Virus record (IMG/VR): IMGVR_UViG_3300006735_000001
Location: 1 to 64,000 of that record
Length of the DNA stretch: 64,000 bases
Direction: 5' to 3' (one strand)
Source of the DNA: a virus
A program made the position numbers and the translations under genes. Shown piece by piece: positions 2,607 through 56,533 of the stretch. A model generated the notes under the pieces. It ran no database searches. It had not been told where the DNA came from and worked only from the letters and a program-made list of their open reading frames with translations. How positions within the stretch are numbered: the stretch's first letter is position 1; each line of letters begins with the position of its first letter.

Positions 2607-5003
2607 TTATGCTAATGCTGTAACTAATACTCTCAAGCTATCTACTGATTGAGCAGCTGAACAATTAATAGTAACAGTATCAACATCTGTTCTAACAATA
2701 TCCGGATAAACATTTGCTCCCGTACTTTTATCAAATACTTGGACTAAAACATCTAAGGTATCTAAACTATGCGTAACAGTCCATGATGATACACTTGTAG
2801 CTGGATAATCACCTGCAAAACTTGTTACAGCTGGTAATTGTTTAGCTAAATTTTCAACAGTTACTCTTTTGTTAGTTGATGCTGATGTATCATATATAAG
2901 TAATGAATCACCTGATGCTGGTGAAGTATCTTGTGTTCTACCAATAATATCTAAACCAACTACAGCAGCTTGACCTTCGCCTGTTGCTCCTGATACATCT
3001 ATACCTAATCTATTATTACTTGAAGATTCTGCTACAGTAGCCGTATAGTTACCTGTTGTTTCTGTACCTAATATTACATTTGATACTTGTACCCAACCGT
3101 TTGCTGATACTGTAAAGTTTGCACTATCAAAACCAGCAACACCTTTTTGTGTATTACCATCTGTAGATCCTGCTCCTGCTATATTCTGATCTGCTATTAC
3201 AATTGTATAATCTGCTTTAGCAGGACTTGAACTGCCTGCAATATCATCATCTGCAAATATAAAATCACCTGGCTCCAGTTGTGTGCTAAAGAATGCATTA
3301 CCTGAAGTACTTACCACATAGAAATCACCTTTATTCATTGCAGTATTACTACCACCACTTAACGCTGGTGTGTTATTACTTGCATTATATCCTCCTTGGA
3401 ATGTACCTACACTTGATGATTCAGATATAACAAAAGCTTTAGAAGCTGCATCAGTTGAAGCACTTGGTGTTGTTGGAACTGTTACTTGACCCGCAAAACT
3501 TGATTGGCCTGTACCTGTTACTTTTAATACTCCAGACATATTTACTGCCTCTGCACCATTTGTAGAATCTATTTCTAAAATACCTGATTTACCTGAAGCA
3601 TCAAATGATAATGCAGAAGCATTGTTATCTATAATATCTATATCGGTTGCTGCAGCTGTTAAGTCAATATCACCTCCTTTAACAGTTAAATCACCTTTAA
3701 CTCTTACATCAAATGGTAACCCAATAGTAATAGTACCATTATTTCCTACAGATTCAGTAATTGCTATTTCACTTGTAGTACCTGCAATAGTAAGAGTACT
3801 ATCAGTACCTGAACTTGCATCAAGTGTTACTACTGCTGAATTTGCACCACCAGCTGAAACTGGTAATGTGTATGTTACTACACTAGAAGAAGTAATAAAT
3901 CCTGCATCATTATTAAATATACTTAACCCTATCTCTCCTGCTGCTTTTCTCTTCCCTTGATCTTTTCCTGTCTCAGAAACATCTAATACAAAGAATTCAT
4001 CACCTGTTAACATTGTTTGAGTCATATCAACTAACTCACTTGCATCAACATTTAATGTTATATTTGCTGCTGCTGTTGGGTTTGCAACTGAACTGTCTAT
4101 TAAATAACCATCTGTTACTGCAACTGAAGTTACTGTACCACCTGAAGTTGGTAATTGTGATATATTAATATATTTGTTATTACCGCTATCAGAAGTATCT
4201 GATATTAAAATTTTATCTCCTGTTGCTGCTGATCCTATACTTGTACCATCTGCAGCTGCTAAAATAATACTATCAGATCCCAAATAATCAACATTTACTG
4301 CACCTGATGTAATAGTTATACCATCACCTCCACCTACTGTTAAAGTTTGAACATGCGCTCCTGCTGTAGTATTTACTGATGTACCACTTAAACCATTACC
4401 TGCTGTAATATTAACCTGTGTTATATCTCCTTGCTGACCTGCTGACATTAAATCAGATACCGTAATATATTTATTACCAGGTGTAGAACCATCAAAAATT
4501 AATAGTCTATCACTAGTATCTGGTGTACCTGAAAGTTGTGTTTGACCTTGTATATCAAGACCTACTACTGGAATTGGTCCAGTACCAGATGCTACACTAA
4601 TACCTTTTAAAACTGCTGAAGTAGCTGCTTGTACTGCTGTAATATCACCATCAGTACCATCAATGGTAAAACCAGTGGCACTTGTTCTAGTTACAGATAC
4701 ACCACCACTTCCTGTCAATGTTATTGCATCAACAGAAGAATCAGAACCTGTTAAGGTAAGTTTTGGATTAGTATTAGACCCACTATTTTGTTCAACAGTT
4801 AAATCATATTTAGTATCAGCATCTGCTGTACTAATATTAACCCAACCAGTGTTATCTCTGAGCCTTAATTTATTTGTAGATGTATCATAGTATAGTTGAC
4901 CTACACCATATACGGTAGGTGCTGTACCTACAGGTTGTACAAGAAAGTTTTGAATCTGACTTCCTTGGAGACTTATTGAGTTTAAAAATTTTATTGCTGC
5001 CAT
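2607..5003 (-). CDS. Tail fibre protein
   Basis: 798 aa, G/S/T/A-rich. Four D-x-(L/I/F)-(L/F)-x-x-D...K knob repeats, a DAASKAFV motif and a C-terminal THSL beta-domain. Confidence 0.8.
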   Translation of the reverse strand: MAAIKFLNSISLQGSQIQNFLVQPVGTAPTVYGVGQLYYDTSTNKLRLRDNTGWVNISTADADTKYDLTVEQNSGSNTNPKLTLTGSDSSVDAITLTGSGGVSVTRTSATGFTIDGTDGDITAVQAATSAVLKGISVASGTGPIPVVGLDIQGQTQLSGTPDTSDRLLIFDGSTPGNKYITVSDLMSAGQQGDITQVNITAGNGLSGTSVNTTAGAHVQTLTVGGGDGITITSGAVNVDYLGSDSIILAAADGTSIGSAATGDKILISDTSDSGNNKYINISQLPTSGGTVTSVAVTDGYLIDSSVANPTAAANITLNVDASELVDMTQTMLTGDEFFVLDVSETGKDQGKRKAAGEIGLSIFNNDAGFITSSSVVTYTLPVSAGGANSAVVTLDASSGTDSTLTIAGTTSEIAITESVGNNGTITIGLPFDVRVKGDLTVKGGDIDLTAAATDIDIIDNNASALSFDASGKSGILEIDSTNGAEAVNMSGVLKVTGTGQSSFAGQVTVPTTPSASTDAASKAFVISESSSVGTFQGGYNASNNTPALSGGSNTAMNKGDFYVVSTSGNAFFSTQLEPGDFIFADDDIAGSSSPAKADYTIVIADQNIAGAGSTDGNTQKGVAGFDSANFTVSANGWVQVSNVILGTETTGNYTATVAESSSNNRLGIDVSGATGEGQAAVVGLDIIGRTQDTSPASGDSLLIYDTSASTNKRVTVENLAKQLPAVTSFAGDYPATSVSSWTVTHSLDTLDVLVQVFDKSTGANVYPDIVRTDVDTVTINCSAAQSVDSLRVLVTALA

Positions 5004-5023
5004 TTTATTTTATTTTATTTTAT

Positions 5024-5569
5024 TTAATTTAAGTATGCACACCCTGAAAATGCAGATGCAAATGTTATTTTTAATATATTTGAGTTAACATAGTCAACGT
5101 CACCTATTACTGTACTATTTCCACTATCTACAACTGTTACAGATGGAAACTTACCTAAATTGTGAGTAATAGTCCATACTGATAATGGTGCATCCTGACA
5201 TGAAACAAATGTACCTGTATCAGCTATAATTTCTTCTAAGTCTAATATAGTACATACACTACTTGGTGTATCTGGACAAGACATACTAGCTTTAATATTT
5301 ACTTTTGCTAGTGGTTCTACAAATGTCCCTGCTGTTCCTGTTGCAACAACAACTTTATTTGATGCTGCATTTTGCCAATCACATATTTCTTTATTTAATA
5401 CAGCATTAACATAATCATTGTAACAGCATGATGCTATACCAAACTTAATTGACTTAAAGTTAGCATATGCTTGAGTTGCAAAATTACGTTCAGTCTTAAT
5501 CCTTTTTAATAAAGCTAATTCTTTAACTTGATCAGAATTACTTGCTACTCTTACCGTTGATGATGCCAT
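5024..5569 (-). CDS. Structural protein (fibre/tail-hub associated)
   Basis: 181 aa, 7 Cys. The C-terminal WTITHNLGKFPSVTVVD domain resembles the C-terminus of the adjacent fibre. Confidence 0.6.
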   Translation of the reverse strand: MASSTVRVASNSDQVKELALLKRIKTERNFATQAYANFKSIKFGIASCCYNDYVNAVLNKEICDWQNAASNKVVVATGTAGTFVEPLAKVNIKASMSCPDTPSSVCTILDLEEIIADTGTFVSCQDAPLSVWTITHNLGKFPSVTVVDSGNSTVIGDVDYVNSNILKITFASAFSGCAYLN

Positions 5570-23372: not shown

Positions 23373-23663
23373 TTACCATTTTACTTTGTCTGCCCAATAA
23401 GCAGCACTCATTTTACCTTTTGCTATATTTTTTCCGTGTCTTGCTTTAAAGCTTTTACGTCTAGCTTTTTGTTTTGCTGATTCACCAGCTTTAGGTTTAC
23501 CAGCAGTCTTCACGCCTTGTTGTCCAAAACGTATTGTCTTGATCTTATCTCCTTGTTTAGCAACTACTACATGTGATTTCTTAGGGTGACTAGGAGTTCT
23601 TTTAGGTTTATTATAACCTGAAACACCTGCTTTTACTAATCTTGAATCTTTTTTCTTTGCCAT
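23373..23663 (-). CDS. Small highly basic protein
   Basis: 96 aa, K/R-rich. Contains IRFGQQG, ARRKSFKARH and SAAYWADKVKW. Confidence 0.75.
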   Translation of the reverse strand: MAKKKDSRLVKAGVSGYNKPKRTPSHPKKSHVVVAKQGDKIKTIRFGQQGVKTAGKPKAGESAKQKARRKSFKARHGKNIAKGKMSAAYWADKVKW

Positions 23664-23666
23664 AAC

Positions 23667-23909
23667 TTATCTTTTCTTTCCTTTATGTAAGCCATGACTA
23701 GCATGTTGTTTACCTTTTTTAGTAGCAGCTCTTTTCTTTTTGTTCGCTGCAGCTAATTTTGCTCTACCTTTTTTTGTTCCCTTTAATTTAGCTATTGTTT
23801 TAGCAGGTGCGTATACCTCACCAGTTTTTGAAGACTTCTTACCACTAGGCGTTCTCCATTTCTGTTTAGTCCATCTTGTTAAACTTTTTTGCTGTTTAGT
23901 CTTAGCCAT
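23667..23909 (-). CDS. Small highly basic protein
   Basis: 80 aa, almost no acidic residues. QKSLTRWTKQKWRT. Confidence 0.75.
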   Translation of the reverse strand: MAKTKQQKSLTRWTKQKWRTPSGKKSSKTGEVYAPAKTIAKLKGTKKGRAKLAAANKKKRAATKKGKQHASHGLHKGKKR

Positions 23910-23920
23910 TACTTTCTCTT

Positions 23921-24100
23921 TTATCTTGTTGTAAATGTATGTAAACTAAATAATACCATGACAGAAAATAATACACCTAATACAGCATGATCATTTTGAG
24001 TTACTATAGGCCTATCTTTTCTTTCCCACGAAGGCTTTGAGGAGCCACAAGTAAATAATAACATACAACATAACGATATTAAGATTATATTTTTACGCAT
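23921..24100 (-). CDS. Small lipoprotein-like/membrane protein, not in the ORF track
   Basis: MRKNIILISLCCMLLFTCGSSKPSWEKKDRPIVTQNDHAVLGVLFSVMVLFSLHTFTTR*. Joined to the upstream ORF by a TAATG overlap. Confidence 0.6.
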   Translation of the reverse strand: MRKNIILISLCCMLLFTCGSSKPSWERKDRPIVTQNDHAVLGVLFSVMVLFSLHTFTTR

Positions 24101-24246
24101 TATTTTTTATGTACTTTTTGTATTGCAAAATTATGTGATAAACTTGCACCTTTGTGTGCAACAAACTTGCCACTATGCTTCATAAGCTTTGGTGCTCCTT
24201 TACCAGACTTCATCCAGTGATATCCTTTTGGTGCTTTTACTTTCAT
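24100..24246 (-). CDS. Small basic protein, not in the ORF track
   Basis: MKVKAPKGYHWMKSGKGAPKLMKHSGKFVAHKGASLSHNFAIQKVHKK*, 48 aa with no D/E. TAATG overlaps on both sides. Confidence 0.7.
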   Translation of the reverse strand: MKVKAPKGYHWMKSGKGAPKLMKHSGKFVAHKGASLSHNFAIQKVHKK

Positions 24247-24443
24247 TACTTTTTACTTTTATAACCTCCACCAGCTGCTTTATATCTTTTAGCTAGCATT
24301 TGTGCCTTACGTGCAGACCATTGTCCAGCACCACCACCTTTGCTCCCGGCTTTAATTGAATTAAACAATCTTTTACGCATTCCTGGTTTAGTATAGTTTC
24401 CAGAACTATTTACCGTACTTTTCTTTTTCTTTTTTACTGCCAT
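24246..24443 (-). CDS. Small highly basic protein
   Basis: 65 aa with no D/E. YTKPGMR...GQWSARKAQMLAKRYKAAGGGY. Confidence 0.75.
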   Translation of the reverse strand: MAVKKKKKSTVNSSGNYTKPGMRKRLFNSIKAGSKGGGAGQWSARKAQMLAKRYKAAGGGYKSKK

Positions 24444-33820: not shown

Positions 33821-34504
33821 ATGAATAATATAGATATAAATATAGTAAAATTAAGGGAAACTTTAAATGATAAACTGGTTGATTCTGGTTGGGAGCCTTT
33901 ATTGTCTCCATATGTAAATGGTTTAAACTTTGATTATGTAGTAAATGAATTAGTAAAGCAAGTAGCAGAAGGCAGAAGGTTTACACCTAAGTTTAAGAAT
34001 ATTTTTAATGCATTCTATGAATGTCCACGTGAAGATTTAAAAGTAGTTATAGTAGGTCAAGATCCATATCCACAGTTAGGAGTTGCTGATGGTATAGCAT
34101 TTAGTTGTAGTATTAAAGGTAAAGCAGAAAAATCCCTGCAGTATATAAATAAATCATTAGGTACAAATCACACAGATTTAAGATGTTGGTCTAATCAAGG
34201 TGTATTACTTATTAATACTGCATTGACTGTTGAAGTAAATAAGATTGGTTCTCACTATCATTTGTGGAAATCCTTTATAGAATATTTCTTTGAGGGTTTA
34301 AACCGGTGTTGTCCAGATACAATATTTATTATGATGGGTAAGAAAGCTGAAGAATGGCAAACTCTTATACCTAATTGTACAATTCTTAAATGTCCTCACC
34401 CAGCATCAGCTGCATATAGAGGTGGAGAATGGGACTCTAAAGATGTATTCAATAAAGCTAATTTAATTCTTGAAAAGCTAGGAAAAGATAGTATAACTTG
34501 GTAA
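33821..34504 (+). CDS. ung: Uracil-DNA glycosylase, family 1
   Basis: VVIVGQDPY, ADGIAFS, QGVLLINTALTV, H..LW and HP motifs. Confidence 0.93.
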   Translation: MNNIDINIVKLRETLNDKLVDSGWEPLLSPYVNGLNFDYVVNELVKQVAEGRRFTPKFKNIFNAFYECPREDLKVVIVGQDPYPQLGVADGIAFSCSIKGKAEKSLQYINKSLGTNHTDLRCWSNQGVLLINTALTVEVNKIGSHYHLWKSFIEYFFEGLNRCCPDTIFIMMGKKAEEWQTLIPNCTILKCPHPASAAYRGGEWDSKDVFNKANLILEKLGKDSITW

Positions 34505-46395: not shown

Positions 46396-46431
46396 CACAA
46401 AGGAGACATACTATGTATGTCTTTTTTTGTG
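46396..46431 (+). terminator. Rho-independent terminator upstream of polB
   Basis: AAAGGAGACATAC-TAT-GTATGTCTTTTTT. Confidence 0.65.
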
Positions 46432-46452
46432 CAAAACTTTAATGATTACTAT

Positions 46453-48450
46453 ATGAAGAAACATTGGGTAATGGATTATGAAACCTTAGCTAATTGTTTT
46501 GTTGCTGTATTTGAAGATTATAAATCTCTTGAAACAAAAATATTTGTTGTACACGATCTACAAAATGATTTTGGTAAATTCATACTCTTTCTAAAAGATA
46601 ACATAAGAAAAAAAGAATGGCATATATCCTATAATGGATTAGCATTTGATGCGCAGGTCACTCACTATATATTAGAAAATCATACAAAATGGGATGCAGA
46701 CTTAAAAGGTTCTGAGATAGCTTGTGCTATATATAACTACGCACAAATTTGTATACAAAAGTCAAATAATAAAGAATGGGGTGATTACCCACAATGGAAA
46801 ATGGAAATAGGTCAGATAGATTTATTTAAATTACATCATTGGGATAATCCTGCTAAACGTTCAAGTCTTAAATGGATACAATATAGCATGGATTGGGAAA
46901 ACATTCTTGATATGCCTATTCATCATGAGACAGAAATTACTACTAAAGAAGAGTTAGATACTATTATTGGTTATTGTATAAATGATGTAAGATCCACAAA
47001 GGAAATATTTAAAAGATCTATATCACAAATTAAATTAAGGAAAGAACTAACCTCTACATATGGAATTAATCTTTTTAGTGCTTCAGAACCTAGAATAAGT
47101 AAAGAAATATTTGGTTACTATCTATCACGTAATCTTAATATACCAAAAAGAGATCTCAAGAAGATGAGAACTTATAGAGATGTATTAAAGATTAAAGATA
47201 TATTATTATCATACATTTCTTTTACATCACCAGAGTTTAAAGTATTACATGAAAGATTTAAGTCTCTTGATATAGATGCTAGCAAATTAAAAGGTAGCTT
47301 TAAGTATAGAGTTAATTATAAAGGTGTAAATACAGACTTTGGTTTAGGTGGTGTACACGGTGCTAGAAAGAAAGGAGTCTATGAATCTAATGATGATGTT
47401 GTTATAATATCTTCTGATGTTACCAGTTTCTATCCTAATCTAGCTATAAAGAATCAATGGTCTCCTGGACACTTCCCTAAAGAAGAGTTTTGTGATCAGT
47501 ATGAGTGGTTCTTTGAAGAGCGTAAGAAGATACCTAAGAGTAATCCAATGAACTATGTATATAAGATTATACTTAATTCAACTTTTGGTCTTAGTAATGA
47601 TGATAAAAGTTTCTTTTATGATCCAGAGCTTTGTGCTAGAATAACTATCAATGGACAGTTAACACTGATGATGTTATATGAACAGATAATGGAAAGAATT
47701 CCTGATGCAATTGCTTTAATACATAATACAGATGGTATAGAAACTATAATTCCTAGGAAAGATATGGATCTTTATATGGAAATATGTAAAGAATGGGAAG
47801 ATACAACCAATCTTAATCTTGAGCATGATGAATATCAGAAGCTTGTATTAGCTGATGTCAATAATTATATTGGTGTGAATAATTATATAGATGTTGACAT
47901 TACTAAGTGGAGAGAAGTTAAACAGAGTCAGCCTCATTATCTATTTAAGGTAGAGAATGACAAGTTTAGCTTTGCTCCTGTCAAGTTAAAAGGTCGTTTT
48001 GATTTCCATAATTTACAATTACACAAAAATAAATCAAAGCTTGTAATTCCTAAAGCTATATATCAATACTTTGTAAATAATGTTTTACCTGAAGAGTATT
48101 TAACTCAGAATAAAAATATTCTTGATTATTGTATTGGTGGAAAATCTAAAGGAGATTGGCAACAACAAGCTAGATTTATTAAAGATGGTGTATATACAGA
48201 AGAATCTTTACAAAAAATAAATAGATATTTTATATCTAACACGGGTGTAAAGATTGTCAAAGTTAATAAGAATGATAGACGTGAGATACAACTTGAATCT
48301 GGTAAATGGCAACAAACTATTTTTAATAAGATGGAAGTAAGACCTAAATGGGATAACTATGACCTTAATAAAGGTTATTATTTAGCTGCTATTGAAAAAG
48401 AGATCAATGATATCATATCTATTAGTACAAATCAACTTAAATTATTTTGA
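46453..48450 (+). CDS. polB: DNA polymerase, family B
   Basis: Exonuclease motifs DYE, YNGLAFD, YCIND. Polymerase motifs SDVTSFYP, KIILNSTFG, NTDG. The track start 46417 lies inside the terminator hairpin. Confidence 0.92.
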   Translation: MKKHWVMDYETLANCFVAVFEDYKSLETKIFVVHDLQNDFGKFILFLKDNIRKKEWHISYNGLAFDAQVTHYILENHTKWDADLKGSEIACAIYNYAQICIQKSNNKEWGDYPQWKMEIGQIDLFKLHHWDNPAKRSSLKWIQYSMDWENILDMPIHHETEITTKEELDTIIGYCINDVRSTKEIFKRSISQIKLRKELTSTYGINLFSASEPRISKEIFGYYLSRNLNIPKRDLKKMRTYRDVLKIKDILLSYISFTSPEFKVLHERFKSLDIDASKLKGSFKYRVNYKGVNTDFGLGGVHGARKKGVYESNDDVVIISSDVTSFYPNLAIKNQWSPGHFPKEEFCDQYEWFFEERKKIPKSNPMNYVYKIILNSTFGLSNDDKSFFYDPELCARITINGQLTLMMLYEQIMERIPDAIALIHNTDGIETIIPRKDMDLYMEICKEWEDTTNLNLEHDEYQKLVLADVNNYIGVNNYIDVDITKWREVKQSQPHYLFKVENDKFSFAPVKLKGRFDFHNLQLHKNKSKLVIPKAIYQYFVNNVLPEEYLTQNKNILDYCIGGKSKGDWQQQARFIKDGVYTEESLQKINRYFISNTGVKIVKVNKNDRREIQLESGKWQQTIFNKMEVRPKWDNYDLNKGYYLAAIEKEINDIISISTNQLKLF

Positions 48451-49280
48451 TTAAAGTCCAGAAGACTAAGACTCTAATTACTAAACCTAATAACAATAGT
48501 GCAAACTGCATAGCTCCCAATATTATCTACGGATGTTTTGGAGGCTGTGTAGACACTTATTGTTATATGTCTAGATATAATGGTAAAAGAGTTTTCGTCA
48601 ATAAAAACGTAGATGAAATTTTTGAGTCTGTTGTTGAATGGGAAAAATTCTTTAATAAAGAACCAGATCAGCAAGACCCTATATATACTATGGTAGATGT
48701 TGCATGTAACTCAGATTTAGTTCTAATGCAAAAGCATATGCCAGAGCCTTTAATTGATTACCTTAAGCGTTATGATAATCATCCTCAGTTAAATAGTACT
48801 ATGGCTACTAAGTATCCGGGGTTATTAAAGTTAGATGTAAATCACTTTAATAAACCACCACGGGTCCGTGTTAGTCTTATGCCTCAGAAGTATTCTAATA
48901 TATTAGAACCCAAGATGCAGCAAATTACAAAGCGCATTATGGATGTTGAACGTTTAAAAGACTTAGGATGGCAAGTTCATCTTAATTATAGTCCTTTAGT
49001 TTTTTATCCCGGATGGAAAGAAGAATATGATAGTTTATTTAAAGAGGTTAAAATTAATGCAGGTATAAATAAATGTGAGGTAATCGCATTAACTAATCAT
49101 AAAAAGCAAATGGCTAAAGCTTCATCAGAAGCCCAAGAATTGATGAGACGTTCTTATGAAGTTAAGAATCAGTCAGGAGTAATGAGATATCCTTTAGAGC
49201 ATAAAGGTAGATTACTTAAAGAATTCAAGAAAATATATAGTAGATATTTTCCATTAAATACAATAAGATATATATTTTAG
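48447..49280 (+). CDS. Spore photoproduct lyase-family radical SAM protein
   Basis: GCFGGCVDTYCYM (CX3CX4C), DVACNSD (matches the B. subtilis SplB AC141TSD region), ATKY, RVSLMP, VHLNYSP, MRY, IRYIF. TTG start overlaps the polB stop. Confidence 0.85.
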   Translation: MIKVQKTKTLITKPNNNSANCIAPNIIYGCFGGCVDTYCYMSRYNGKRVFVNKNVDEIFESVVEWEKFFNKEPDQQDPIYTMVDVACNSDLVLMQKHMPEPLIDYLKRYDNHPQLNSTMATKYPGLLKLDVNHFNKPPRVRVSLMPQKYSNILEPKMQQITKRIMDVERLKDLGWQVHLNYSPLVFYPGWKEEYDSLFKEVKINAGINKCEVIALTNHKKQMAKASSEAQELMRRSYEVKNQSGVMRYPLEHKGRLLKEFKKIYSRYFPLNTIRYIF

Positions 49281-49332: not shown

Positions 49333-50265
49333 ATGGGATACAAAAAACCAATTGAAACAACCAGAAAATATCTGGAAAATGCACCCTTACCTCAACATGG
49401 TAAGAGTTATACAGTTATATCACATAAAGAAGTGATAGACAATACTTTATTTCTACTACAACATAGTGGATTTACTGTCAGTAAACAGCTATATAGATGT
49501 AATCATAATGCAAATGTAGCACAGGGAATATATTATATAGTTCCTAATAGTGTTGACTCAACCATTAATAATGAAAAAGAATTGGGTATGATGTTTGCTT
49601 GGACAAACTCATATGACAAGTCAACTAGATTTCAATGTGCTGTTGGAGCATATGTAAAAGTATGTTACAATGGTATGGTTGCTGGAGATATGTTAAATTT
49701 TAAAAGAAAACATACAGGGGCAGCACATTTTGATGTTAAGATGCAAATATCTAATCAGATTAAAAATGCAGAAAAGTATTACAAAAGAATACTTAATGAT
49801 AGAGATCTGATGAAGAGTATTACACTTAACTGCAGACAACAAGCAGAGTTAGCAGGTAGATTATTTATTGAAGAAGAAATTTTAGATACACAACAAATGA
49901 CATGTGTTAAATCTGAGATAGATACTCCTACGTATTCATATGATGAGTCTTTAGATTCTGCCTGGACATTCTACAATCATGTTACTCATGCTCTTAAGAA
50001 AGCACACCCAAGAGATTGGTTGGCTGACCAACAGAACTTTCATGATTTTATGACCGCACTATGTAATAGTTTTAATACTACTAATAGTAAGTATGAAAAA
50101 TGGTTAACTGATAATCCAGATTATACAATATCAGATAAAGTAGAAGAAATATCTGAAACAGCACCAACTACTGAAGATGCTGAAGAAATAATAGTAAATG
50201 ATTATGAGATAGAATTGGCGGATGTAGATTACACTAATGAATCTGAGTTCCTGCTGAATGATTAA
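49333..50265 (+). CDS. DUF932-like phage protein
   Basis: YTVISH, NSYDKS, VCYNGM, KRKHTG, AWTFYNHVTHALK. Confidence 0.7.
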   Translation: MGYKKPIETTRKYLENAPLPQHGKSYTVISHKEVIDNTLFLLQHSGFTVSKQLYRCNHNANVAQGIYYIVPNSVDSTINNEKELGMMFAWTNSYDKSTRFQCAVGAYVKVCYNGMVAGDMLNFKRKHTGAAHFDVKMQISNQIKNAEKYYKRILNDRDLMKSITLNCRQQAELAGRLFIEEEILDTQQMTCVKSEIDTPTYSYDESLDSAWTFYNHVTHALKKAHPRDWLADQQNFHDFMTALCNSFNTTNSKYEKWLTDNPDYTISDKVEEISETAPTTEDAEEIIVNDYEIELADVDYTNESEFLLND

Positions 50266-50413: not shown

Positions 50414-50803
50414 ATGATAACAGTAATAGAATGGAGAAGAAGACAACAGTTTGAATCAAAAAAATTAGCATCAGAGTATTTTAAAATACCTATTTGGCTC
50501 ATAAATAAAAGTATTGCAAATAATGAAGAGGTATCTTATAGAGTAGATGAAGTAAATACTCCATCACAAGTTAGAAAATATAAGTTCTCTCAAGCATATT
50601 TCCAAGGTGGTGCTACCAAAGAACTACCTATCCAAACAACTATACCCTTTGGAAAGTATAAAGGTAAAGAACCTAAAGAAGTTCCTCTTGGGTATCTTTT
50701 ATGGATGTATAAAAAAACAGACTGCCCTATGGTTGTTTTAAGAGCACTAAGAGAAGTTAATAAATTAATGAACGGTAAATATGAAAAAGGTAAGAAAATG
50801 TAA
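50414..50803 (+). CDS. Protein with an N-terminal NUMOD1-like helix motif and a C-terminal PFGKYKG (DUF3820-like) domain
   Basis: FESKKLASEYF and IPFGKYKGKEPKEVPLGYLLWM. Confidence 0.65.
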   Translation: MITVIEWRRRQQFESKKLASEYFKIPIWLINKSIANNEEVSYRVDEVNTPSQVRKYKFSQAYFQGGATKELPIQTTIPFGKYKGKEPKEVPLGYLLWMYKKTDCPMVVLRALREVNKLMNGKYEKGKKM

Positions 50804-53808: not shown

Positions 53809-54030
53809 TTAACTATTTCTGTATCCATTTTTAAAAGCTGCTGACTGAACTGGTTCTGCTGCTCTTGTGGATTTCATATCACATACAATACCAGCTTTAG
53901 CTAATCTTTGTCTTTTAGCAACTTTTTTTGCATTTCTTTTCTGTTGGGACTTCTGATATTGAGAAGTAGGGTTAAAGTACCCATTAGGTACATTACCGTC
54001 TCCCACCGGGAATGATATTTTTTTTGCCAT
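53809..54030 (-). CDS. Small basic protein
   Basis: 73 aa, K/R-rich. Confidence 0.65.
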   Translation of the reverse strand: MAKKISFPVGDGNVPNGYFNPTSQYQKSQQKRNAKKVAKRQRLAKAGIVCDMKSTRAAEPVQSAAFKNGYRNS

Positions 54031-54041
54031 AACTTTAATTT

Positions 54042-54350
54042 TTATTTTTTCATGTAAGCTTTACGTGCAGTCTTTCTGACCATACCTTTCTTAGTGCCTG
54101 CTTTCTTTTTTGAACCTCCTCTTTTATACTTTACTTTGCCACCATTAGTCATCATATCTAAAAGATCAGACTCCATACCTTGAAGACCTCCCATTTCACC
54201 TGCCATTTCCATAACTCTTTTACCAGCATTCATAATACCTTCACTAATGTAATCACCTTTTGATGATCCACTACCTGATGTAAGATTATTAGCCATACCC
54301 ATGCCACCCATGTTCATTTTTTTAGCTAACATTTTTTTCATATTTCCCAT
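54042..54350 (-). CDS. Met/Gly/Lys-rich low-complexity protein
   Basis: Repeated M-x-x-GG motifs and a basic tail. Confidence 0.65.
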   Translation of the reverse strand: MGNMKKMLAKKMNMGGMGMANNLTSGSGSSKGDYISEGIMNAGKRVMEMAGEMGGLQGMESDLLDMMTNGGKVKYKRGGSKKKAGTKKGMVRKTARKAYMKK

Positions 54351-54362
54351 AATTTCTAATTT

Positions 54363-54833
54363 TTAATTTTTGTTGTTACTTATTGTTTTAAATTTTTCTG
54401 CCCCTCTAGAACCAAAATATGCTACATAGACAGTTATTAAAAGTGACTTGAGTAAATCTACCCAGCCACCGTCAATACTAAAGTCTATATCAAAACCATC
54501 TAACAATATAAATATAACTAATGAAACAGTCAAAAATATTAACGTTAATGGTCTTGTATTTTTAGATAAGTATGAGTCAGACTTCATATCTGCCTGCCAT
54601 CTCTTACTTACTTCTTGCATCTCAATCATGTCTTGTTCAAGAAGCTTCAATGCTTTTTCTTTGTCTTCTGGTGGCAATACAATATCAGGCTCCTTTTGTA
54701 TAAGACCTTTAACAACACCCAATAGACCTGCATCAGGCAATGCATCACCAACTAAACCAACAATACTTGGAACTTTCTCTGTTAGGAATTTTCCAACCTT
54801 AGTTTCACTAAATCTTTTCTTTGGCTTACTCAT
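54363..54833 (-). CDS. Putative holin (3TM/GTA-type)
   Basis: RWQADMKSDSYLSKNTRPL followed by two TM helices and YFGSRGAEK. Confidence 0.75.
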   Translation of the reverse strand: MSKPKKRFSETKVGKFLTEKVPSIVGLVGDALPDAGLLGVVKGLIQKEPDIVLPPEDKEKALKLLEQDMIEMQEVSKRWQADMKSDSYLSKNTRPLTLIFLTVSLVIFILLDGFDIDFSIDGGWVDLLKSLLITVYVAYFGSRGAEKFKTISNNKN

Positions 54834-54843
54834 AATTTTTTGT

Positions 54844-55686
54844 TTATGGATATATTCTTATTTCTATTCCTGTTCTTAATAATTGATTGTCAGCAAGACT
54901 TCCATTTTCCTGCGTACTTAACTGAAAACTTGCAGTAGCACCACCAAATATATTAATCACTACTGTTTGATTTTTTAAATTACCTTGTGCAGGTGCAAAA
55001 AATACTTTGTCCAAATTAGCCAGAGCTGTTCCCCAAGTACCTCTATACATACCTGTGTTTGTACGTGTCCATACAATAGTATTACCGGTTGTATTTTCTA
55101 GTACTGTTGCAACTGGTGCATCGGTTCCAGATTGTGATAACAACGCAGTATAGCTTGTATACGGTCTCCCATCTGTGGAATTAATAGTAATCTCATTTGC
55201 GCTTTGTGCTAATGTTACATTTGTACCTCCTATTAAAGATCTAAAATTAAGTGTCTCACCTACTTTATCTTTCCATATTGCAAATCCAGTTCCTGCATTA
55301 GCAGCCGTATTAGGCTCACCTGTTGTAGTTATCTCTACATAATCATCATCATCAGAGTTGGCAAGAGTCAGGTTGCTACTCAAAGACTTTAAGGATCTGT
55401 AAAATACAGTACAAGTCTCAAGAACGTCATCAGATTCTGTTTTCTGATATACTTGACCAGTGCCAGCAGCTGGAGAAGCTGGAGAATTTGCATGTGCACA
55501 GTGTTCTGCAGCAACCTTAAAATCTCTCACCTTTATAACTTTAACACTCTTGTAAGGTATTGGTGAAGCAACACCTTCCATATCAGGCTGTTCATTAGTT
55601 CCTATTATAAGAACATCATTTAAACCAGCTTTCTTTGCATAAACTGATCTTTTTATTAAACTTAATACATCAGTTAAAATATTCAT
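54844..55686 (-). CDS. Structural/fibre-like protein
   Basis: LNFRSLIGGTNVTL module, C-terminal YTALLSQSGTDAPVATVLENT...IEIRIY domain. N-terminus resembles that of 51114..53444. Confidence 0.65.
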   Translation of the reverse strand: MNILTDVLSLIKRSVYAKKAGLNDVLIIGTNEQPDMEGVASPIPYKSVKVIKVRDFKVAAEHCAHANSPASPAAGTGQVYQKTESDDVLETCTVFYRSLKSLSSNLTLANSDDDDYVEITTTGEPNTAANAGTGFAIWKDKVGETLNFRSLIGGTNVTLAQSANEITINSTDGRPYTSYTALLSQSGTDAPVATVLENTTGNTIVWTRTNTGMYRGTWGTALANLDKVFFAPAQGNLKNQTVVINIFGGATASFQLSTQENGSLADNQLLRTGIEIRIYP

Positions 55687-55859
55687 TTCTTCTTCTGTTT
55701 TTTAGATGGGCCACTGTATGTATTATGGGTACCCCCCCCTAGTTTTTTCTTTCTCAAGTTTCTTTCAAAAGCAGAATGCATCATAATCTCACCACCTTTA
55801 GGTAATAACTTATCACCATTTTTAGGTTTCTTCTGTATTGGAAGTTTGTGAGTTCTCAT
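55683..55859 (-). CDS. Small basic protein, not in the ORF track
   Basis: MRTHKLPIQKKPKNGDKLLPKGG...SKKQKKK*. Overlaps both neighbours. Confidence 0.55.
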   Translation of the reverse strand: MRTHKLPIQKKPKNGDKLLPKGGEIMMHSAFERNLRKKKLGGGTHNTYSGPSKKQKKK

Positions 55860-55957
55860 TAATCTTTATTTTTTTTACAGCATACTTCTTTTCGGCAAGA
55901 TCCTAAACAAACTTTACCAAATGTAATCCACTGTATAAATACACATATATTTCTCAT
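55859..55957 (-). CDS. Cys-rich micro-protein, not in the ORF track
   Basis: MRNICVFIQWITFGKVCLGSCRKEVCCKKNKD*. ATGA and TAATG coupling. Confidence 0.5.
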   Translation of the reverse strand: MRNICVFIQWITFGKVCLGSCRKEVCCKKNKD

Positions 55958-56079
55958 CTTCCTTGACCTCTATATTTTTGTTTATATCCGCTTTGACCTC
56001 TAGAAGCATTCTTAGAATGAACCCCTGGTCTTTTTTTACCAGATACTTTTTTATAATTATTCGTAAGAATTCTAGCCAT
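55954..56079 (-). CDS. Small basic protein, not in the ORF track
   Basis: MARILTNNYKKVSGKKRPGVHSKNASRGQSGYKQKYRGQGR*, no D/E. Confidence 0.65.
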   Translation of the reverse strand: MARILTNNYKKVSGKKRPGVHSKNASRGQSGYKQKYRGQGR

Positions 56080-56324
56080 TACTTCTTTTTTCTACCTTTA
56101 CGGGCCTTGCCTGCTAATGCATCATCAATATCACCAAGTTGATTACCAACTTGTTTTATAGCTAATCCTACATCTGCTAGCTCAGCAGCAGTAAGTTTAT
56201 ATCTTTTCTTAATCTCTTTTAAAGTAGCAATTGCTTTCTCGTCTAGAGATGTTCTAGACCAAACAGCTCTCCAATAATCTTGAAGGCTATAAGTCCATAA
56301 TACATTTATAAATTTTTTAAACAT
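56079..56324 (-). CDS. Hypothetical basic protein (start probably MFKKFIN, not 56375)
   Basis: The track's N-terminal extension overlaps the promoter motif at 56342-56364. Confidence 0.6.
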   Translation of the reverse strand: MFKKFINVLWTYSLQDYWRAVWSRTSLDEKAIATLKEIKKRYKLTAAELADVGLAIKQVGNQLGDIDDALAGKARKGRKKK

Positions 56325-56341
56325 AATAATCTTTTTAATTG

Positions 56342-56364
56342 ACACTATATAAATAATATACAAA
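56342..56364 (-). promoter_or_regulatory. Putative late promoter
   Basis: 23-mer identical to 6355-6377. Confidence 0.7.
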
Positions 56365-56533
56365 TTTTGTCTCACTTAACCAACATTAAGAGTCAGATTA
56401 ATATTATATTTGTTTTTAAATAAAATTTACTAGATTAGTTTTTTGTGTATGATCTATTTTTCTTACATTGATAATATCTAGTAGCTGCACTTCTTTTTGA
56501 TGTGTGGCTTTTTAATCCTATATACCATATACT

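Follow-up and report, generated by a model that had tools for sequence, protein, structure and literature searches.

A shortened gene of the spore photoproduct lyase family in a marine phage genome and its predicted role in light-independent DNA repair

The 64,000-nucleotide window analyzed here (positions 1 to 64,000 of IMG/VR record IMGVR_UViG_3300006735_000001) carries a gene of the spore photoproduct (SP) lyase (SPL) family which, on balance, appears to encode a radical SAM DNA-repair enzyme that is functional and self-sufficient and belongs to a shortened branch derived from TIGR03886 proteins, with light-independent reversal of an SP-like lesion as its predicted activity. Since the phage, an abundant and uncultured one of the ocean, possesses a shortened but strongly conserved SPL relative, its DNA is probably repaired by its own enzyme with no need of light, and light-independent repair after infection, as had been proposed earlier, is supported as the most likely role, the lesion being, as we infer, of the thymine-dimer type. 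The original prediction, in which the gene formed part of a spore-like UV-protection system, was borne out in part: a functional SPL-family enzyme and light-independent repair were upheld, whereas coupling to PolB, SASP-like partners and orthology with SplB were not.

The gene is located at 48447..49280 on the plus strand and was identified from the ORF list, Pfam, NCBIfam, the PDB match and an AF2 model as a short-form SPL-family radical SAM gene of 277 aa with a TTG start. It is a genuine gene belonging to the SPL family at the Pfam level, and the predicted overlap with the end of polB was found, the TTG start sharing the letters TTGA with the TGA stop. The protein passed the Pfam profile PF20903 (SPL) with 61 bits (E = 1.2e-16, cut-off 27), residues 7-209 being matched to profile positions 65-258. 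The best-scoring curated model was TIGR03886 (137.5 bits, residues 5-277 against profile positions 61-346), although its equivalog cut-off of 437.55 bits was not reached, while the SplB model TIGR04070 gave 61.9 bits against a cut-off of 400, the range for bona fide SplB of Bacillota genomes being 413-544 bits. Geobacillus SPL (4fhc) was matched both by the sequence in the PDB (E = 2e-9) and, as the closest fold, by the AF2 model (pLDDT 95.5; E = 6.8e-16, TMq 0.77); SPL was the top solved match in both comparisons by a wide margin. The lyase had no family in PHROGs and no cultured-phage homologue by tblastn; more than 1,200 homologues were present in metagenome protein sets.

In the phylogenetic analysis, the phage lyase was placed within a clade of 49 short forms (about 280 aa; support 99%) beside TIGR03886-type proteins of Bacteroidota, with 13 SplB sequences as the outgroup (a quick tree with SH-aLRT support only). 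This clade is nested among the uncharacterized 'SPL family' (TIGR03886) proteins that non-sporulating bacteria encode, and the phage lyase represents the TIGR03886-type branch and is no SplB orthologue. The SplB-family membership claimed earlier was thus retained for the SPL family, in agreement with the Pfam result, and abandoned for SplB proper, given the TIGR04070 score and a position in the tree away from SplB. The TIGR03886 proteins (Cytophagales, Myxococcus, Methylobacterium and Actinomycetota) resemble the phage enzyme in the Thr at the position of Geobacillus R273, which is universal among them, in the [IV]-R-Y motif and in being encoded by stand-alone genes with no conserved partner, whereas their length (343-376 aa), full N-terminal domain and canonical CX3CX2C motif distinguish them from it. 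This family is commonly encountered among bacteria that withstand UV and desiccation. Short SPL-family genes (about 291 aa) on the chromosomes of Legionella sp. D16C41, Odyssella, Lewinella/Neolewinella and Cesiribacter share with the phage lyase the truncated architecture, the insertion variant CxGGCxx[ST]YCY and the 99%-supported clade, at 35-38% identity; however, they are cellular genes in an ordinary chromosomal context and encode a longer hairpin with an aromatic residue. A location of these bacterial short forms in prophages was rejected, their neighbours being housekeeping-type genes. Around 78 bacterial homologues no conserved neighbour was detected, the top neighbour family occurring in 14 loci and resembling lineage-specific synteny, and two more distant short forms (P0123 and P0133), each used as a single protein to scan viral contigs, yielded no matches. 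No report of a biochemically characterized TIGR03886-type or short-form member was found in the literature, which was counted against the lyase reading; nor was a report of activity found for TIGR03886, the sole functional hint being the UV induction of a TIGR03886-type gene in Curtobacterium (PMC12029717). SplB-like genes have been tied to SOS repair operons (PMC3765255).

Comparison with Geobacillus SPL, for which residue roles were taken from PMC3467042, revealed that S79, C90, C94, C97, Y96, Y98, C140, D143, K174, R193, S195, E268 and Y339 were all retained in the phage lyase. According to the 4fhc alignment, the [4Fe-4S] cluster motif C30-FGG-C34-VDTY-C39-Y40 (48534..48566, plus strand), including Tyr38 and Tyr40, reads CFGGCVDTYCY (CX3CX4C) and has two residues inserted relative to CMGHC--HYCY, with all three Cys kept. 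The pattern CxGGC[VI]x[TS]YCY was retained in all 120 close homologues, and 15 of 61 diverse members of the family contain the two-residue insertion. It should be noted that this insertion was absent from the earlier description of the motif and that the non-canonical spacing was counted against the lyase reading. The putative hydrogen-donor Cys lies in the alignment within D84-VAC87NS-D90 (48696..48716, plus strand) and corresponds to Geobacillus Cys140; D[VI]ACN[ST]D was likewise retained in 120 of 120 close homologues, while the Cys was present in 37 of the 61 diverse members and replaced in about 40%. Both features claimed earlier, the Tyr that follows the cluster Cys and the Cys of DVACNSD, were thus present, the HMMER alignment to 4fhc equating Y40 with Y98 and C87 with C140; Y38 was aligned to Y96, so that both relay residues, Tyr96 and Tyr98, are kept. 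K122 and S143 stand at the positions of the SAM ligands K174 and S195, and R141, E211 and Y275 at those of R193, E268 and Y339, which bind the dihydrothymine. By alignment, Tyr275 (49269..49271, plus strand) is the equivalent of Tyr339, which contacts O4/N3 of the 5'-dihydrothymine (PMC3467042). Consequently, the likeness to SplB (Geobacillus thermodenitrificans SPL, PDB 4FHC/4FHD/4FHF; Bacillus subtilis SplB; TIGR04070) extends to the radical SAM partial TIM-barrel fold, the three cluster Cys with the flanking Tyr-Cys-Tyr, a hydrogen-donor Cys placed as in the Bacillus-type enzymes, the Lys and Ser ligands of SAM, the Arg/Glu/Tyr triad for the 5'-dihydrothymine and the Ser loop for the 3'-thymine.

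Given these residues, the following course of reaction may be proposed. A [4Fe-4S] cluster on C30, C34 and C39, reduced by host flavodoxin or ferredoxin, would act on SAM held by K122 and S143 to give the 5'-deoxyadenosyl radical, which would attack a dihydrothymine-type lesion, flipped out and gripped by R141, E211, Y275 and the S18 loop, and remove a hydrogen. The thymine-thymine bridge would then be cleaved, C87 would give a hydrogen atom back, and Y38 and Y40 would pass the radical back. The predicted outcome is direct, light-independent reversal of an SP-like lesion in phage DNA after injection or during replication. Expression early or in mid-infection is probable from the location on the plus strand in the replication module.

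The phage enzyme differs from SplB in its length of 277 aa against about 340 aa with a full N-terminal alpha/beta domain, in CX3CX4C against CX3CX2C, in Thr and Val at the positions of R273 and K309, in a short hairpin in place of a long aromatic-tipped one, and in its viral, aerobic setting, which lacks sporulation and SASP. Its residue 1 aligned at about Geobacillus residue 61, so about 60 N-terminal residues are absent, and all that remains of the N-terminal part is the beta3'-beta4' loop region, in which S18 corresponds to S79. The loss of the intra-lesion phosphate ligands (R273 to T216 and K309 to V245) was counted against the lyase reading, as was the shortened beta-hairpin region (residues 236-253; 49152..49205, plus strand; alignment and AF2), which is about six residues shorter than in SplB (KNQS-G-VMRY) and in which the alignment is less certain. 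The aligned hairpin tip has no aromatic residue (Y305 in SplB) and hence no aromatic wedge. The hairpin region contains R247-Y248 and K253, all invariant in the 17-sequence alignment (A2), and R247 is suggested as a candidate substitute for the lost phosphate ligands.

With the phosphate ligands replaced, the hairpin shortened and the N-terminal domain truncated, substrate recognition is presumably unlike that of SplB, and it was considered whether the SPL fold serves a different DNA chemistry, namely, repair of another lesion (methylene-bridged or dihydropyrimidine), a preference for ssDNA or fork DNA, or modification of thymine in undamaged DNA. The replacement of the donor Cys in about two-fifths of the diverse members hints at varied chemistry in the family, and a phage radical SAM enzyme with an SPL-like predicted fold can modify DNA: gp53 of Pseudomonas phage M6 is the radical SAM isomerase of thymidine hypermodification (PMC8989533). 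However, gp53, although also phage-encoded and DNA-acting, has 480 aa, no detectable similarity to the phage lyase (BLASTP E = 1.8) and no Pfam SPL match, and it works inside a 5-hmdU cluster (thymidylate-synthase homologue, kinase and PLP enzyme), whereas no conserved neighbours were found to accompany the phage lyase. No ThyA/ThyX homologue (PF00303, PF02511) that could make 5-hmdU was found in the 113.6-kb genome, and modification of the gp53 type was rejected on these grounds. As the lyase retains the triad that binds thymine as well as the Cys/Tyr relay and moves alone, with no conserved modification genes found beside it, a different chemistry is considered rather unlikely, and repair of an SP-like lesion remains the preferred reading.

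The lyase is under strong purifying selection (dN/dS 0.07-0.16, with synonymous sites near-saturated). Of 27 large related phage records, 24 contain it, as do 16 of the 18 relatives with a completeness of at least 90%, and on all 18 contigs carrying both genes it was 5-13 points more conserved than PolB. These values, together with the catalytic motifs invariant in 120 homologues, make it extremely improbable that the gene is a mere passenger from a bacterium, in decay or without function, despite its location in a variable island, the unusual spacing of the cluster motif and the in-frame stops found in the lyase gene of three relatives.

The gene had also been described as coupled to PolB. 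The DNA polymerase gene (phrog_1252 in PHROGs; 46417..48450, plus strand) is the upstream neighbour here and is no conserved partner: in the related-locus search, for which the 17-member alignment was used, it lay directly upstream of the lyase in only 8 of 77 loci, by which translational coupling to PolB as a conserved feature was ruled out. Since the position of the lyase also varies between the variable island and other parts of the genome, the coupling seen here is incidental. Downstream of the lyase, the most frequent neighbour (33 of 75 loci) was the DUF932 gene at the far edge of the variable island (49333..50265, plus strand; Pfam and loci survey). No fixed neighbour was found across the phage loci, and its absence in both phages and bacteria is expected of a stand-alone enzyme.

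The replication module also contains, 14 kb from the lyase, a gene of the uracil-DNA glycosylase superfamily (33821..34504, plus strand), so the predicted presence of Ung alongside the lyase was confirmed. No photolyase, T4 endonuclease V homologue or other radical SAM gene was found in the phage. No tRNA genes were detected in the 64-kb window, and the segment at 24.4-27.4 kb gave no match in Rfam. An aerobic host is indicated by the class I RNR gene of the phage. Radical SAM enzymes are oxygen-labile, and this combination of host and enzyme class was counted against the lyase reading. The view of the phage lyase as a functional SPL-family radical SAM enzyme in a non-sporulating aerobic host was, on the whole of the evidence, sustained.

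To date, SPL has been known from spores alone, where it acts on one lesion of SASP-bound, dehydrated DNA, and SP is not known to form in hydrated B-form DNA, a point counted against the lyase reading. The decay of phage infectivity in sunlit water is largely UV-driven. That most phages of this abundant marine group keep a shortened lyase under strong selection suggests that SP, or a lesion like it, is of consequence for viral DNA packaged in particles in such water. It is possible, if doubtful, that sunlit particles of this ocean group accumulate an SP-type thymine lesion in their densely packed DNA and that their own radical SAM lyase, a near-core function, reverses it on infection independently of light. 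If so, SP would be ecologically relevant outside spores, and the enzyme would be the first virus-encoded one of its kind. For mechanistic work, the phage lyase further offers a compact, naturally minimized SPL scaffold whose CX3CX4C cluster loop is unusual, and it gives a handle on the function of the uncharacterized TIGR03886 family.

Finally, nine very basic small ORFs had been proposed as SASP-like partners of the lyase. The first cluster (23373..24443, minus strand) encodes proteins of 96, 80, 48 and 65 aa (pI 10.7-11.9; phrog_7595, phrog_14910 and phrog_17747), and the second set (53809..56375, minus strand), located among tail-type genes, encodes proteins of 73, 102, 58, 41 and 98 aa (pI 10.0-11.5; no family). 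All nine exist, with lengths of 41-102 aa, pI 10.0-11.9 and a net charge of +11 to +27, whereas the description 'nearly acid-free' holds for four of them (D+E 0-1) and not for the rest (3-9 acidic residues). They lie in minus-strand blocks with endolysin and tail genes, and no word of nine or more letters was common to the regions upstream of the two blocks, for which late-type promoters had been proposed. An integrated system, in which these proteins coat packaged DNA in the manner of SASP and steer UV photochemistry to SP that the lyase then repairs, would accord with nine such ORFs in late-strand blocks and with the similarity of the 96-aa protein to part of phrog_220 (annotated 'minor head protein and DNA pilot'; E = 1.1e-6), which is compatible with a location inside the virion. 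However, neither the nine proteins nor the six-frame genome search gave a match to the SASP profile PF00269 at E up to 1. Three of the mini-proteins belong to phage families known from cultured phages without an SPL match, and homologues of the 96-aa and 65-aa proteins, 62-90% identical, occur in cultured roseophages, cyanophages, pelagiphages and others, while the lyase was matched by no cultured phage record. Co-occurrence with the lyase was not observed for the two proteins tested among the 27 large relatives: of the 24 records with the lyase, 10 encode the 80-aa protein and 11 the 65-aa protein, and each of the two is encoded in 1 of the 3 records without the lyase. The 80-aa protein was missing from 11 of the 16 lyase-bearing records at least 90% complete. 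The annotation of Synechococcus phage S-CBS2, where the homologue is labelled 'hypothetical' and a gene beside it 'structural', was also counted against the integrated system. Because SASP likeness and co-occurrence are lacking and three of the mini-proteins belong to families of cultured phages, the spore-like system is not supported and is very improbable; both sets were judged to lie outside the function of the lyase, and it would be wrong to regard these proteins as analogues of SASP.

The gene under study, a plus-strand ORF at positions 48447-49280 encoding a protein of 277 aa, was confirmed as real, its TTG start and the polymerase's TGA stop overlapping as TTGA. The product (hereafter, the lyase) matched the Pfam profile of spore photoproduct lyase (SPL) with 61 bits (cut-off 27), and it scored 137.5 bits with NCBIfam TIGR03886 ("spore photoproduct lyase family protein") and 61.9 bits with TIGR04070 (true SplB), both far under the equivalog cut-offs. 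The only solved sequence relatives were Geobacillus SPL entries (4fhc, E = 2e-9). SPL was also the top structural match (E = 6.8e-16, TMq 0.77) of a confident AlphaFold2 model (mean pLDDT 95.5) derived from 61 family members, ahead of every other radical SAM enzyme by eleven orders of magnitude. Both motifs named in the original prediction were present, with the Tyr after the third cluster Cys aligning to Tyr98 and the Cys of DVACNSD to Cys140; it had overlooked that the cluster motif CFGGCVDTYCY is of the CX3CX4C type, with a two-residue insertion relative to CMGHC--HYCY.

Phylogenetic analysis included 13 bona fide Bacillota SplB genes (TIGR04070 scores from 453 bits up) as the outgroup, homologues found in bacterial genomes, both long and short, and representatives of a library of 1.84 billion proteins (quick tree search, SH-aLRT support only). 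The lyase fell within a clade of 49 short proteins (~277-300 aa, 99% support), which grouped with longer proteins of the TIGR03886 type (343-376 aa) from Cytophagales, Sphingobacteriales, Myxococcus, Methylobacterium and others. This clade took in chromosomal genes of Legionella sp. D16C41, Odyssella, Lewinella and Cesiribacter, which had ordinary cellular neighbours and shared the CxGGCxx[ST]YCY variant with the phage protein. The placement of the short forms among TIGR03886-type proteins indicates a member of the SPL family that is not an SplB orthologue. On the whole, what the original prediction observed was confirmed, and its interpretation is supported in part. The lyase is a phage-borne, truncated, CX3CX4C-type SPL-family enzyme, a variant within a known family; no description of an SPL-family gene in marine phages, or of spore photoproduct (SP) in phage particles, was found in full-text open-licence papers and preprints. 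It should be added that in Candidatus Odyssella thessalonicensis, a single case, the short SPL-family gene (locus L010, 5986-6861) lay ~540 bp downstream of the S-adenosylmethionine synthetase gene metK (4249-5445) on the same strand.

Residues were compared with those of Geobacillus SPL, whose roles are taken from the structure paper (PMC3467042), the numbering being mapped through a Geobacillus-type SplB (L178). The cluster cysteines C90/C94/C97 (lyase C30/C34/C39), Y96/Y98 (Y38/Y40), C140 (C87), D143 (D90) and the SAM ligands K174 and S195 (K122, S143) were all kept, as were S79 of the loop holding the 3'-thymine (S18) and the 5'-dihydrothymine ligands R193, E268 and Y339 (R141, E211, Y275). 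In contrast, both ligands of the intra-lesion phosphate, R273 and K309, were replaced (T216, V245), and the beta-hairpin was about six residues shorter than that of SplB, without the aromatic tip residue. All TIGR03886-type proteins shared the R273-to-Thr change; in the returning strand, they and the short forms carry instead an Arg-Tyr pair (lyase R247-Y248), invariant in the 17-sequence family alignment.

Since the machinery that generates the radical, the Cys/Tyr path that returns the hydrogen and the triad that recognises thymine are all kept, the lyase most likely performs SPL-type chemistry on a thymine-dimer-type lesion. Repair of an SP-type lesion is, in our estimation, moderately probable; given the changes in the phosphate ligands, the hairpin and the N-terminus, its exact substrate may be something other than classical SP in duplex DNA. 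The lyase is the only recognisable direct-reversal repair gene of the phage, in which no photolyase, T4 endonuclease V homologue or other radical SAM gene was found. In the non-sporulating Curtobacterium aetherium, UV induces a TIGR03886-type gene (PMC12029717), and SplB-like genes have been tied to SOS repair systems through their gene neighbourhood (PMC3765255). A different DNA chemistry, which we regard as rather unlikely, has a precedent in M6 gp53, a phage radical SAM isomerase that takes part in thymidine hypermodification and whose predicted fold is SPL-like (PMC8989533); however, gp53 has no Pfam SPL match and no similarity to the lyase (E = 1.8), no ThyA or ThyX homologue as a possible source of 5-hmdU was found in the phage, and no modification genes lie alongside the lyase.

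A set of 5.8 billion proteins yielded more than 1,200 homologues of the lyase. The 120 best were 80-100% identical to it and nearly all 277 aa long; they came from marine metagenomes, Tara among them, on contigs of up to 125 kb, and every one of them kept CxGGC[VI]x[TS]YCY and D[VI]ACN[ST]D. Values of dN/dS were 0.07-0.16 in the eight scorable of ten relatives compared, the other two being saturated at synonymous sites, and conservation of the lyase exceeded that of the polymerase by 5-13 percentage points in all 18 contigs where both were recovered. The gene was present in 24 of 27 large related records and in 16 of the 18 that were at least 90% complete. In-frame stops occurred in the lyase genes of relatives G071 (L104, two TAG), G088 (L214, one TAG) and G081 (L147, one TAA), which could be pseudogenes or cases of stop-codon recoding. 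Contigs of this phage group (L003, L002, P0023) were binned into metagenome-assembled genomes labelled Clostridium sp., Flavobacteriales and Pseudomonadales; the "Clostridium" bin had its own true SplB on a contig other than the 100-kb phage-like one (L003, NZ_JBNMNU010000001.1), which looks like a mis-binned phage.

The complete virus record is 113,577 bp long, with direct terminal repeats, and AT-rich (~30% G+C), the window being its first 64 kb. A plus-strand replication module at 25-51 kb contains UDG (33821-34504), SNF2-type and DnaB-like helicases, an AAA_24 ATPase, a primase, a DUF2201/VWA protein, an AAA ATPase, a PD-(D/E)XK nuclease, a DNA polymerase and a DUF932 protein. The polymerase (46417-48450, +) was identified via phrog_1252 (E = 1.9e-129), without a match to Pfam DNA_pol_B, and was 33% identical to the polymerases of Nitrincola phage 1M3-16 and Cellulophaga phage phi14:2; by eye, it has the family-B-like motifs DVTSFYPN and KIILNSTFG, with NTDG replacing the usual DTDS. 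The module is followed by a class I ribonucleotide reductase (56.5-59.3 kb), which suggests that the host is aerobic.

The presumed coupling of the lyase to polB was not borne out in relatives, since polB lay directly upstream in only 8 of 77 lyase loci. In 80 polymerase-centred loci (L179-L258), the polB-DUF932 gap ranged from 85 to 4,984 bp, with varying small genes inside; the lyase occupied it in 28 of 70 loci, and in other genomes it was many kilobases from polB (~17 kb in relative G064). DUF932 followed the lyase directly in 33 of 75 loci, the flanking genes of the 77 lyase loci belonged to 65 families, and no conserved neighbour of the bacterial homologues was found. The gene thus moves alone, and a self-sufficient enzyme is the best reading of its product. 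Among other ORFs of the polB-DUF932 gap, a variable island, GroEL-like, PhoH-like, MazG-like and SET-domain-like ones were tentatively recognised by eye from N-terminal sequences in different relatives. Downstream of DUF932, an ORF of 129 aa (50414-50803, +) matched Pfam QSregVF_b (E = 1.2e-6), and a related ORF occurs in the island of some relatives.

The nine basic mini-ORFs of the original prediction, in two minus-strand sets (23373-24443 and 53809-56375), were confirmed (41-102 aa, pI 10.0-11.9, net charge +11 to +27). Three of them were assigned to phage families (PHROGs) of unknown function, namely, the 96-aa (23373-23663, phrog_7595, E = 1.8e-42), 80-aa (23667-23909, phrog_14910) and 65-aa (24246-24443, phrog_17747) ORFs. 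The first also matched positions 514-604 of phrog_220, "minor head protein and DNA pilot" (E = 1.1e-6); among the matches listed, its product was 70-78% identical to roseophage proteins, and Synechococcus phage S-CBS2 was among the best. The 65-aa protein shared 62-90% identity with its counterparts in pelagiphages, Puniceispirillum phage HMO-2011, Methylophilales phages and roseophages. A lyase paired with an analogue of SASP, the small DNA-coating proteins of spores, is not supported, because none of the nine proteins resembled SASP, homologues of the 96-aa and 65-aa ones occur in cultured phages, in whose records no lyase match was found, and co-occurrence was lacking: among 27 relatives, the 80-aa protein was found in 10 of 24 lyase-bearing and one of three lyase-free records, and the 65-aa protein in 11 of 24 and one of three, respectively. 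A putative virion-internal or DNA-binding role of the mini-proteins is possible. The relatives of the 96-aa and 65-aa proteins, also present in Roseobacter CRP phages, Lentibacter ICBM2 and Celeribacter P12053L, are hypothetical proteins from cultured marine phages of unrelated hosts, and it is unusual for proteins to be conserved in this way across host phyla. The 80-aa ORF matched positions 49-110 of the 116-position DUF5872 profile (E = 5.6e-4), and the nearest Pfam-bearing Atlas cluster of the 65-aa ORF was likewise DUF5872 (score 0.89); the two may represent one DUF5872-type gene split in two.
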